In this document: in pieces, positions 53,303 to 55,053 of the stretch
Layout of the letters: each line of letters starts with the position of its first letter
How positions within the stretch are numbered: position 1 is the stretch's first letter
Source: Dehalococcoidia bacterium
GTDB lineage: Bacteria > Chloroflexota > Dehalococcoidia > DSTF01 > JACRBR01
Direction: 5' to 3'
DNA: 64,000 bases
Assembly (NCBI GenBank): GCA_038227375.1
Contig: JBBRPY010000005.1
Span: 457 to 64,456, forward strand
The notes under the pieces: model-generated
Databases searched by the model: none
What the model saw: only the letters and a program-made list of their open reading frames with translations
What the model was told of the DNA's origin: nothing
Made by a program: the position numbers and the translations under genes

Positions 53303-53376
53303 GATGTCGGAAGTTAGATGTTGGAGGTTGGAATGCGCGTTGCGGCTCCAACATCTAACATCCAACATCTAACATC
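53303..53376. repeat. palindromic heptamer-built element (hairpin; 14-bp perfect stem GTTAGATGTTGGAG / CTCCAACATCTAAC), copy 1, upstream of eno
   Basis: gatgtcggaagttagatgttggaggttggaa tgcgcgttgcgg ctccaacatctaacatccaacatctaacatc. Confidence 0.7.
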
Positions 53377-53430
53377 GCCCGCTTGATGGCAGGAACGATC
53401 CTGCGTCCCCCGAGCGTCGAGAGGACACGC

Positions 53431-54726
53431 ATGTCAAACATCAAGAGCATGCACGCGCGCGAAATCCTTGATTCGCGCGGCAATCCGACGGTGGAGGTCG
53501 ATATCCGGCTCGACGACGGCGCCCTCGGCCGCGCCGCCGTGCCTTCGGGCGCCAGCACGGGCGAGCACGAGGCGGTCGAGCTGCGGGATGGCGACCTCAA
53601 GCGCTATGGCGGCAAGGGCGTGCTGACGGCGCTAGTCAACGTTAACCGCGAGATCGAGCCGCAGATCCTCGGCATGCCAGCGGGCGACCAGGCGGGACTC
53701 GACCGCAAGCTCATCGCGCTCGACGGCACCGACGCAAAGAGCCGTCTCGGCGCGAACGCGATCCTCGGCGTCTCGCTGGCGAACGCGCGCGCCGCCGCCG
53801 TATCGGCCGGGGAGCCGCTCTGGCGCTATCTCGGCGGCCCGACGGCGCGGCTGATGCCGGTGCCGATGTTCAACATCCTGAACGGCGGCAAGCACGCCAC
53901 CGCCTCGACCGATTTCCAGGAGTTCATGGTGATGCCGCTGGGCGCCCCCAGCTTCAAGGAAGGTCTGCGCTGGGCCGTGGAGGTCTATCACGCGCTAGCG
54001 ACCGTGCTGCGGAAGCGCGGCCACCAGACCAACGTCGGCGACGAAGGCGGATTCGCGCCGTCGCTCGGCGGCAACGAGCCCGCGCTCGACGTGATCATCG
54101 AGGCGATCCAGGCGGCGGGCTACGAGCCCGGCAAGGACCTCGCGATCGCCCTCGACCCCGCTTCGAGCGAGCTGTGGGACGCGAAGCAGGAGCGCTATGT
54201 GCTGGCGACGGAGAAGCGCGTGCTGACGAGCGAGGAGATGGTCGAACACTGGCAGTCCTGGGCCGAGAAGTACCCGATCGTCAGCATCGAAGACGGCATG
54301 GCCGAGGACGATTGGCGCGGTTGGGCGCTGCTCGCGGCGCGCATCGGCGACCGGGTGCAGCTTGTCGGCGACGACCTCTTCGTGACAAACACCAGGCGCA
54401 TCGAGCGGGGCATCCGCGAGCGCTCGGCGAACAGCGTGCTGATCAAGGTCAACCAGATCGGCACGCTGACCGAGACGCTCGAGGCTATGGCGATGGCATC
54501 GGCTGCCGGCTGGACCTCCGTCATGAGCCACCGCAGCGGCGAGACCGAAGATTCCACCATCGCCGACCTCGCCGTCGCCACGGGCTGCGGCCAGATGAAG
54601 ACCGGCGCCCCCGCCCGCGGCGAGCGCACGGCGAAGTACAACCAGCTCCTGCGCATCGAGGAAGAGCTGGGCCGCACGGCGCGGTACGCCGGGTGGGGGG
54701 CGCTGGGTGAGCGAGGGCGCGGTTAA
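53431..54726 (+). CDS. eno: enolase (phosphopyruvate hydratase)
   Basis: [24 protein letters not shown]... with the full set of enolase signatures. The ORF track start at 53383 is an N-terminal over-extension. Confidence 0.95.
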
Positions 54727-54763
54727 GCCGCCGTGGTTTTCGGGCGGGCTCGGCGCTATGAAG

Positions 54764-54985
54764 TGGCGGATGTTAGATGTTGGATGTTGGCGGGGATCGG
54801 CCGGCGCCTTGGGCGCGAGCATTGGCTCCAGGCTTGCGTGCGAACTGGGCTCCCGGTGGGCGAGCCGGGCGCGGTCGAGTTGCGGATGTTGGATGTTGGG
54901 GGGGACGGCCGGCGGCCTGGGTGCGAGCATTGGCGCCAGGCCTTGCGGGTGAACCTTGGCTGCGCGAGCTAGGCGCGGTCGAGTT
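54764..54985. repeat. minisatellite: two ~105-115-bp direct tandem units, each beginning GCGGATGTT(A/G)GATGTTGG and ending GGCGCGGTCGAGTT
   Basis: Unit 1 is ~54764-54881 and unit 2 is ~54882-54985, about 85% identical. A third, truncated unit merges into the hairpin element at 54999-55053. Confidence 0.7.
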
Positions 54986-54998
54986 GCGGATGTTTTAA

Positions 54999-55053
54999 GT
55001 TAGATGTTGGAGGTTGGAGGGGCTCGGCCAACTAACATCCAACATCTAACATC
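54999..55053. repeat. palindromic heptamer-built element, copy 2, downstream of eno (same stem sequence as 53303-53376)
   Basis: gttagatgttggaggttggagg ggctcggcc aactaacatccaacatctaacatc. Confidence 0.65.

Follow-up and report, generated by a model that had tools for sequence, protein, structure and literature searches.

The enolase gene eno in a 64-kb window of a Dehalococcoidia bacterium (64,000 nt of contig JBBRPY010000005.1, the whole stretch of DNA that was analysed) lies between two copies of a palindromic element whose arms are built from 7-nt units (heptamers), and the downstream copy closes a short minisatellite. This eno-flanking feature is probably a non-coding quasi-palindrome of heptameric simple-sequence repeats, which was copied locally and partly amplified, and not a mobile element. 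It was assigned to the heptameric repeats, and the features tested for other kinds failed, namely a target-site duplication and an empty site for MITEs (miniature inverted-repeat transposable elements), end tags for repetitive extragenic palindromic sequences (REPs) and a U-tract for intrinsic terminators.

Heptamer-armed hairpins and a minisatellite around eno

The spacer 5' of eno has a length of 230 nt and contains, in this order, (TGGAGGC)3.4, (GTCGGAA)3.4, a 29-nt unique leader and the heptamer-armed hairpin 1. The left arm of hairpin 1 (53303-53332) reads GTCGGAA-GTTAGAT-GTTGGAG-GTTGGAA, the right arm (53346-53376) is (ATCYAAC)4, and the structure is closed by GGCGG/CGCC. Its stem GTTAGATGTTGGAG (53313-53326) is followed by the exact reverse complement at 53346-53359, and the inverted repeat spans 24 nt with 92% complementarity (arms 53303-53326 and 53346-53369). 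Hairpin 2 (54986-55059; left arm 54989-55020, right arm 55029-55053) has the same orientation and carries GTTAGATGTTGGAG at 54999-55012 and the 3' arm ATCCAACATCTAAC at 55037-55050; here, the inverted repeat comprises 17 nt with 94% complementarity (arms 54999-55015 and 55034-55050). In a preliminary description of this DNA, the stem was said to be identical in both copies, which is correct for copy 1 (14/14), but copy 2 matches at 13 of 14 positions. Both hairpins consist of two arrays in opposite orientation that are able to form a stem-loop, as is known for heptameric repeats. The folding of both copies, which had been proposed as a check, gave structures far better than those of shuffled sequence: hairpin 1 (53295-53385) reaches -40.7 kcal/mol as RNA (z = -5.2; 0 of 200 shuffles were as good) and -23.1 kcal/mol as DNA (z = -4.9), and hairpin 2 reaches -33.8 kcal/mol (z = -4.7) and -18.8 kcal/mol (z = -5.0), respectively. 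The inverted repeats and folds thereby bear out the earlier claim that heptamer palindromes with a common orientation flank eno on either side. With up to two mismatches, the 14-mer GTTAGATGTTGGAG occurs 14 times in the window, compared to 0.09 expected occurrences.

The 400-nt spacer 3' of eno is composed of the units A, B and C (104-116 nt each), followed by a small GC hairpin and (CCGACGA)3. Tandem Repeats Finder detected a repeat with a period of 104, 2.1 copies, 82% matches and 6% indels (54776-54994, score 290), which confirms the minisatellite of about 105 bp that had been described 3' of the gene. The start-to-start spacings are 116 and 104 nt, and (GGATGTT)2-3 opens every unit. Units A and B retain the leader, two to three heptamers and the beginning of the loop, after which a GC-rich spacer follows, and unit C is a full second copy with the heptamer order of the upstream copy (GATGTY-KAAGTTA-GATGTTG-GAGGTTG-GA). 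The 21-nt right arm AACATCCAACATCTAACATCG and the trailer CG.CCGCTT are identical in the upstream copy and unit C (88% over 41 nt). The leader of the upstream copy matches the leaders of units A, B and C at 18-19 of 29 positions, a similarity with a background frequency of 4e-5 to 6e-4 among the 29-mers of the window, and leaders B and C agree at 26 of 29 positions. Judged by their sequence, the upstream copy and units A, B and C are true paralogues, because they share non-heptamer flanks that are unique to them within the 64 kb; the identity among the copies is 62-88%. Elsewhere in the window, outside the eno flanks, a profile of the whole unit matched nothing but plain heptamer arrays. No other segment complements the terminal right arm (55034-55062) as well as the left arm of unit A (54760-54788) does (29 nt, 90%), and in the minimum-energy fold of the 3' region the stem formed by both arms encloses the whole block of about 300 nt.

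Tblastn searches revealed no pseudogene remnants of 4HBT, acetyltransferase or methyltransferase genes in the two spacers, which indicates that the repeats are not decayed genes. Six small open reading frames (ORFs) across the repeats gave nothing credible in Pfam, and no Rfam family matched either strand of positions 52500-57000 at E values up to 1. A CRISPR array was also considered and rejected, since the repeats have a length of around 20 nt at a spacing of around 85 nt and the 'spacers' are mutually 86% identical.

Heptamer arrays are a property of the genome and not of the eno locus. Head-to-tail 7-nt arrays and an excess of period 7 were found within the 64 kb: eight arrays have a period of 7, none has a period of 8-11, and 0-1 were counted for periods of 4-6. 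The density of period-7 arrays per 100 kb is 12.5 in the window and 10.5 in the relatives described below versus 1.55 in eno-collected loci of diverse bacteria, which corresponds to an approximately 8-fold enrichment. Near eno, Tandem Repeats Finder reported period-7 rows at 53213-53236, 53240-53263, 53350-53376, 54768-54790, 54884-54899, 55006-55020 and 55034-55053, and further arrays of the window are located at 42340-42477, 56344-56398, 56516-56594, 58213-58235 and 59765-59791. The stem motif, on whose recurrence away from eno the idea of an element had been made to depend, is present at 42346-42379 and 56344-56398; since these sites are simple heptamer arrays and no further copies, the outcome of this check is mixed.

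The eno flanks in related genomes

Relatives were defined as contigs encoding an enolase that is 86-91% identical to that of the window. The closest named enolase relatives are metagenome-assembled genomes (MAGs) designated 'Chloroflexota bacterium' and 'Dehalococcoidia bacterium'. A metagenome scan with the enolase protein yielded, among the matches listed, mostly enolases of 60-68% identity and one new relative, L131, which is devoid of the hairpin. The order of genes is kept and comprises uvrC, PCMT, a XerC-like integrase, an InhA-like peptidase, a 4HBT thioesterase, eno, a variable interval and DnaJ. In L123 (91% identical enolase), GATGTTGGAGGTTAGACGTTGGATGTTGGAG-loop-CTTCCAACGTCTAACATCCAACATCTAACATC is located between the 4HBT gene and eno, and L124, L210 and L213 (88%) carry (GCTGGAN)2-5-loop-(ATCYAAC)4-5 with the end CCGCCGC. 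The 20-mer AACATCCAACATCTAACATC is common to the window (twice, and once reversed), L123 and L124. The distance from the hairpin to the eno start is 24 nt in L123 and around 55 nt in the other four of the five lineages. No hairpin is present upstream of eno in L001, L002, L127 and L214, and the 4HBT-eno spacer is 110-130 nt long in relatives with the hairpin versus 48-59 nt in those without it. In L001, (AACTGTG/AACTGAG)5 fills this spacer (9959-9997) and ends 3 nt before the eno ATG. Since the upstream copy stands at an orthologous site in L123, L124, L210 and L213, it was inherited and is no insertion. The gene context is thus conserved, as in other heptameric repeats, with variation of length and sequence among relatives. 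The arrays (GCTGGAR)n / GTCGGAG that follow the stop codon of the InhA-like peptidase gene are orthologous in L124, L210 and L213 as well.

None of the relatives examined carries the downstream block, and a comparison of the 104-nt unit with their eno-downstream spacers gave heptamer matches only. The comparison of the eno flanks, which had been proposed to show whether the elements are insertions, contradicts an insertion of the upstream copy; the downstream block is found in the window only. A methyltransferase gene lies directly 3' of eno in L001, L124, L210 and L213, and in L002, L123, L127 and L214 eno is followed by 24-104 nt that consist mainly of heptamers, and the stop codon of eno is part of the first unit (TAGGTTC, TAGGGAC). 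L127 and L129 encode identical enolases; however, 11 TAGGGAC units are present in L127 (7763-7866) and five in L129 (3778-3846), with the eno stop TAG as part of the first unit; this difference speaks directly for slippage. The interval between eno and DnaJ contains, depending on the relative, nothing, a methyltransferase, a methyltransferase and an acyl-CoA dehydrogenase, a methyltransferase and a carbonic anhydrase, or a methyltransferase, an asparaginyl-tRNA synthetase and a carbonic anhydrase. The comparison therefore supports the recombination hot spot that had been suspected here, as both the gene content of the flanks and the array copy number at an identical enolase differ. The 4HBT gene is present in every relative examined, but not in the window, and tblastn found no remnant of it in the two spacers. 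Moreover, the types of heptamers at the same positions differ among close relatives (AACTGWG, TAGGTTC, TAGGGAC, TGACGAC).

Some further observations were made in these genomes. TAGGTTC or TAGGTTG arrays in L002, L124, L210 and L213 likewise start with the eno stop TAG, and in TAGGGAC-type arrays that open at the eno stop every third unit provides a stop codon in each frame. The spacer between the InhA-like peptidase and 4HBT genes is flanked by the inverted arrays (GCTGGAR)n … (TTCCGAC)n in L124 (7309-7667), L210 (2992-3369) and L213 (1076-1596), and encloses a conserved core (around 250 nt) that contains a small ORF with an ATG start and a very basic product (MVTTPPHHRRRRR…). The window has neither this segment nor the 4HBT gene.

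Features of the window

The G+C content of the window is 66%; the features around eno are listed below.

Coordinates of the features around eno (positions in the 64-kb window)
Feature	Position	Strand	Basis or remark
InhA-like peptidase gene, 5' neighbour of eno	51116-53200
(TGGAGGC)3.4 and (GTCGGAA)3.4, right behind the InhA-like peptidase stop	53213-53236 and 53240-53263, within 53211-53263	+	Tandem Repeats Finder
Leader of the upstream copy, 29 nt, non-heptamer, GGGGCGAGCGAGATGCTTTTCAATGGCGG	53275-53303	+	18-19/29 match to the leaders of units A, B and C
Hairpin 1	53299-53379	+	Heptamer arms, inverted repeat, RNA and DNA folds; orthologue upstream of eno in L123, L124, L210, L213
eno, enolase of 431 aa, between the hairpin copies	53431-54726	+	Translation 100% identical to P0001; Pfam Enolase_N and Enolase_C listed for matches
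Unit A: leader, GATGTTA-GATGTTG-GATGTTG, 66-nt GC-rich spacer	54741-54856	+	Direct and inverted repeats, Tandem Repeats Finder
Unit B: leader, (GATGTTG)2, 61-nt spacer	54857-54960	+	Direct repeats (D4 86%), Tandem Repeats Finder
Unit C, full second element copy: leader, hairpin 2, trailer CGACCGCTT	54961-55061	+	Direct repeats (D2 78% over 55 nt, D5 88% over 41 nt), folds
Small GC hairpin UCCCGGAG-AAGU-CUCCGGGA, adjoins hairpin 2	55061-55080	.	8-bp stem in the fold of 54720-55130
(CCGACGA)3.1, just past the acyl-CoA dehydrogenase stop	55093-55114	+	Tandem Repeats Finder
Acyl-CoA dehydrogenase gene, convergent with eno	55126-56289	-	Pfam
DnaJ-domain gene	Start near 56613		Comparison with L123

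The assigned ATG of eno agrees with the starts in the relatives. The terminator scan detected no U-tract after the small GC hairpin. Between the divergent acyl-CoA dehydrogenase and DnaJ genes, (GTTGGAG/GCTGGAG)7.9 is located at 56344-56398 and around 11 degenerate CCGACGA units at 56516-56594; ORFs that are called across these two arrays (e.g., 56271-57320) begin too early for DnaJ. Another dialect, (TGGTGAY)3, stands at a gene end, right behind the stop codon of the gene ending at 58210 (58213-58235).

Two arrays lie in frame within genes. The first (42340-42477) consists of a (GTTGGAT)5-GCGC-(YTCCAGC)n hairpin and (CCAGCTT)4 and is part of a DUF2344 gene (42026-42868, minus strand), to which it adds around 46-60 residues (…EAGAWKLEAG…EAGGWKLEAGSAHPTSNIQHPTS…); the Pfam match covers 236 residues versus a profile of 176 positions. 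The hairpin folds with -50 kcal/mol on the plus (antisense) strand and -37 kcal/mol on the mRNA strand. The second, (TCCAGCC)3.9 at 59765-59791, codes for linker sequence in a GlpD-like FAD oxidoreductase (59411-61123, minus strand). The orthologue of L124 has GGWKVEDG at the same position, and another insert (…PPSRLGKGAGGLGS…) is found in L127 and L002.

Origin, rival explanations and known repeat systems

A probable course of events can be outlined for the heptamer quasi-palindrome. Arrays of 7-nt units, of the GYYRGAD type and others, accumulate in spacers and, in frame, in tolerant protein linkers of this Chloroflexota lineage, presumably because slippage during replication favours 7-nt units. 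If a forward array came to lie next to one in reverse complement, most simply via template switching, the result would be a quasi-palindrome, and the one around 55 nt upstream of eno predates the split from the relatives with 88-91% identical enolases. In the lineage of the window, the whole unit, consisting of leader, left arm, loop, right arm and trailer, was then probably copied across eno into the interval that gains and loses genes. The 5' half of the copied unit would subsequently have been amplified in part to tandem units of 104-116 nt, either by slippage or by unequal recombination with the heptamers as microhomology. The main effect of the repeats would be mutational, in that they create a fragile and plastic spot, and, if transcribed, the hairpins would at most serve as generic stem-loops, that is, as a barrier for exonucleases or a weak terminator for eno and acyl-CoA dehydrogenase.

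Several points weigh against this explanation. Dispersed copies may exist beyond the 64-kb window, in which a profile of the leader found only four sites, all of them around eno. The low identity among the copies shows that the duplication is old, so that the direction and mechanism of copying cannot be read from the sequence. The flanks are also complementary outside of the heptamers (GCGG...CCGC), which shows that the palindrome was retained as a unit. Furthermore, the right arm is far better conserved across the relatives than the remaining spacer, and one compensatory change of the stem from T-A to C-G occurred in L123; both hint at constraint and not at neutrality.

Such constraint would be expected if the hairpins were REP-like elements or bacterial interspersed mosaic elements (BIMEs), i.e., stem-loops that are selected in the transcript and for which the heptamers are mere building material, which is considered unlikely. 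They could shield the upstream message from 3' exonucleases, set the 3' end of eno or function as a U-tract-free terminator for eno and acyl-CoA dehydrogenase. In agreement with this idea, the folds of both strands are very stable (-34 to -44 kcal/mol, z around -4 to -7), the position of the hairpin before eno is conserved, with a longer 4HBT-eno spacer in the relatives that carry it, and hairpin 2 and the small GC hairpin are located exactly between convergent genes. However, the sense RNA hairpin is weak in L124, L210 and L213 (-17 to -30 kcal/mol; the arms of L210 are unpaired), and the antisense strand folds better, because their GCTGGAN left arm pairs by G-U on the antisense strand but is mismatched (C-A) on the sense strand of eno. 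This indicates that the presence of the array is conserved rather than an RNA structure of the sense strand. A consistent strand bias (G-U versus C-A) that would mark one transcript was also considered and rejected, since the hairpins of the window and L123 fold equally well on both strands. Covariation is negligible (2 of 11 pairs; RNAalifold reported 11 shared pairs with an unfavourable covariation term of +0.83), and no hairpin is present in L001 despite convergent genes that are only 1 nt apart. An intrinsic terminator scan of positions 52800-56700 detected three small sites, compared to 1.5 ± 1.3 expected from shuffled sequence; neither heptamer hairpin was among them, and no T-run follows hairpin 1 or 2. 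Small terminator-like stems with a short T-run are located at 54719-54731, with the eno stop in the loop, as well as at 53270-53284 and 54974-54988, within the leaders of copies 1 and 2. The REP tags GTAG and CGTC are absent from the element, the ends of which read GGCGGATG... and ...CATCGCC(C)GC, and GTAG in L124, L210 and L213 is the last codon and stop of the 4HBT gene. The REP-like character that the preliminary description had assigned to the element is hence limited to a functional analogy. The evidence for selection of the hairpin as a structure is weak, and any role as an RNA stem-loop would not be conserved on one strand.

Heptamer hairpins of this kind are not confined to Chloroflexota. 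A scan of 185,579 species genomes with AACATCYAACATCYAACATC yielded at least 120 stretches, and the matches listed belong to Verrucomicrobiota, Acidobacteriota, Bacteroidota, Gemmatimonadales, Chloroflexota, cyanobacteria and other groups. Among these matches, seven loci carry the pattern on both strands, six of them close enough for a hairpin, and the hairpin of the Gemmatimonadales locus L025 has the same left-to-right arrangement as the eno hairpins. In the Ca. Acidoferrum MAG DATKNZ01, at least four near-perfect hairpins were observed on different contigs (L006 39-134, L026 2571-2666, L043 1713-1808 and L020 around 2070-2160); they have the form GGGAACATCC(x5)AATG-loop-CATTGGATGTT(x5)CCC, with fixed ends, variable loops and the heptamer of the eno hairpins. 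It could be speculated that GGA-containing heptamers (GUUGGAU, GCUGGAG, GUCGGAA) are binding sites for a CsrA-, Csp- or S1-like RNA- or DNA-binding protein, which the hairpins would sequester or present, thereby linking eno to a post-transcriptional network. A GGA core is present on one strand in all main heptamer types of the window, in the window as well as in the relatives the arrays stand directly behind stops and ahead of starts, GGATGTT arrays and hairpins recur among the matches listed from Verrucomicrobiota, Acidobacteriota, Gemmatimonadales and Bacteroidota, and TAACTGA repeats are similarly placed upstream of starts in Beggiatoaceae (PMC4679880). Binding of this type of factor has also been proposed for the TAACTGA repeats (PMC4679880). 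Nevertheless, an array of binding sites is very unlikely here: unrelated heptamers occupy the same positions in close relatives, which does not fit one binding specificity, the arrays occur on either strand and some of them in frame inside genes, and no candidate protein was identified. In addition, the target unit is no commoner than permuted controls in viral contigs, where the GGATGTT pattern matched 37 stretches versus 22, 46 and 23 for three permuted units of the same composition, so that GGATGTT was rejected as a special unit for these contigs. The similar numbers suggest that the recurrence across phyla reflects a generic abundance of heptamer arrays. It is even less probable that GTTGGAT-type hairpins of this Chloroflexota, Gemmatimonadales, Verrucomicrobiota and Acidobacteriota form one REP-like class with a dedicated activity that makes or maintains them or a reader that recognizes GGA, which would turn the eno hairpins into functional nodes instead of by-products of slippage.

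The least probable of the explanations is the MITE that had been suggested earlier, i.e., a non-autonomous unit of around 100 nt with heptamer terminal inverted repeats, which inserted on both sides of eno and was partly multiplied. Two copies in the same orientation do share unique flanks, the downstream block is bounded by the 29-nt inverted repeat with 90% complementarity and stands where relatives have a gene, and the Ca. Acidoferrum hairpins are multi-copy and have fixed ends in another phylum. On the other hand, no target-site duplication is found in the flanks GCGTTTG|...|GATGGCA and GGTTTTC|...|CCCGGAG, no additional leader-bearing copy exists among the 64 kb beside the four leader sites around eno, no transposase-like partner was seen nearby, and the plasmid and phage collections gave no match. 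The upstream copy, which occupies the orthologous site in four relatives, was inherited, and an identity of 62-88% marks the copies as old, whereas a recent transposition would have left near-identical ones. An empty site was not found in the relatives; downstream, there is no clean one, because other genes occupy the site.

This single site offers a clean comparative series, in which an inverted pair kept upstream of a housekeeping gene, the replacement of dialects, a change in copy number between strains and the gain and loss of genes come together. The locus is thus useful for asking whether heptamer arrays drive local genome plasticity. For annotators, caution is advised, as the arrays create long spurious ORFs, sit in frame in genes and mimic mobile elements or structured RNAs.

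Among the collected papers that were searched, none contains GGATGTT or ATCCAAC arrays. The feature can be compared to several repeat systems. Similar to MITEs, it is small, non-coding, bounded by inverted repeats, foldable and adjacent to genes, but differs from these in the missing target-site duplication, the lack of a dispersed copy in the 64 kb and the vertical descent of the upstream copy at an orthologous site. With the REPs and BIMEs of proteobacteria, it shares imperfect palindromes between genes or in operons and stable RNA stem-loops, for which a role in mRNA stabilisation or termination is plausible. REPs exist in hundreds of copies and are linked to REP-associated tyrosine transposases (RAYTs). 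They are described in PMC3733652 as palindromes of 20-40 nt with unique sequence and GTAG or CGTC end tags; in contrast, the arms of the eno hairpins are microsatellites without end tags.

Closer parallels are found among heptameric repeats. According to the summary of Mrazek (2007) in PMC4679880, no other long simple repeats are as abundant in many bacteria, and polymerase slippage has been proposed as their cause. As for the short tandemly repeated repetitive sequences (STRRs) of cyanobacteria and the TAACTGA repeats of Beggiatoaceae (MacGregor 2015, PMC4679880), the dialects are genome-specific and intergenic, often abut starts or stops, occur occasionally in frame in ORFs and are phylogenetically scattered. 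The (AACTGTG/AACTGAG)5 array of L001 resembles the TAACTGA repeats of marine Beggiatoaceae in its unit and its position before a start codon. STRRs and TAACTGA repeats are, however, nearly all direct, with one indirect case among 170 sets in the Guaymas genome (PMC4679880), whereas here inverted pairs are prominent, several dialects occur side by side, and one takes the place of another among close relatives. Such inverted pairs are known from Xanthomonas, where around 185 (GGGAATC)n sites were described, 70-75 of which are convergent pairs capable of forming stem-loops (Rehm et al. 2015, PMC4692102). There, 83% of the repeats share the same gene context between species, and their length varies while the type is preserved (PMC4692102). 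The arrays of the window and of L123, L124, L210 and L213 likewise are intergenic and degenerate, often form inverted pairs, and keep their context and their type as single array or inverted pair. In contrast to Xanthomonas, the unit is GYTGGAN / ATCYAAC, which does not form G-quadruplexes, the phylum is an uncultured Chloroflexota, and the inverted pair has unique flanks, a copy at a second site and a partial amplification to a 104-nt minisatellite. The range of heptamer repeats, which have been little studied and were known from Xanthomonas, cyanobacteria and Beggiatoaceae, is thus extended to uncultured high-GC Chloroflexota.

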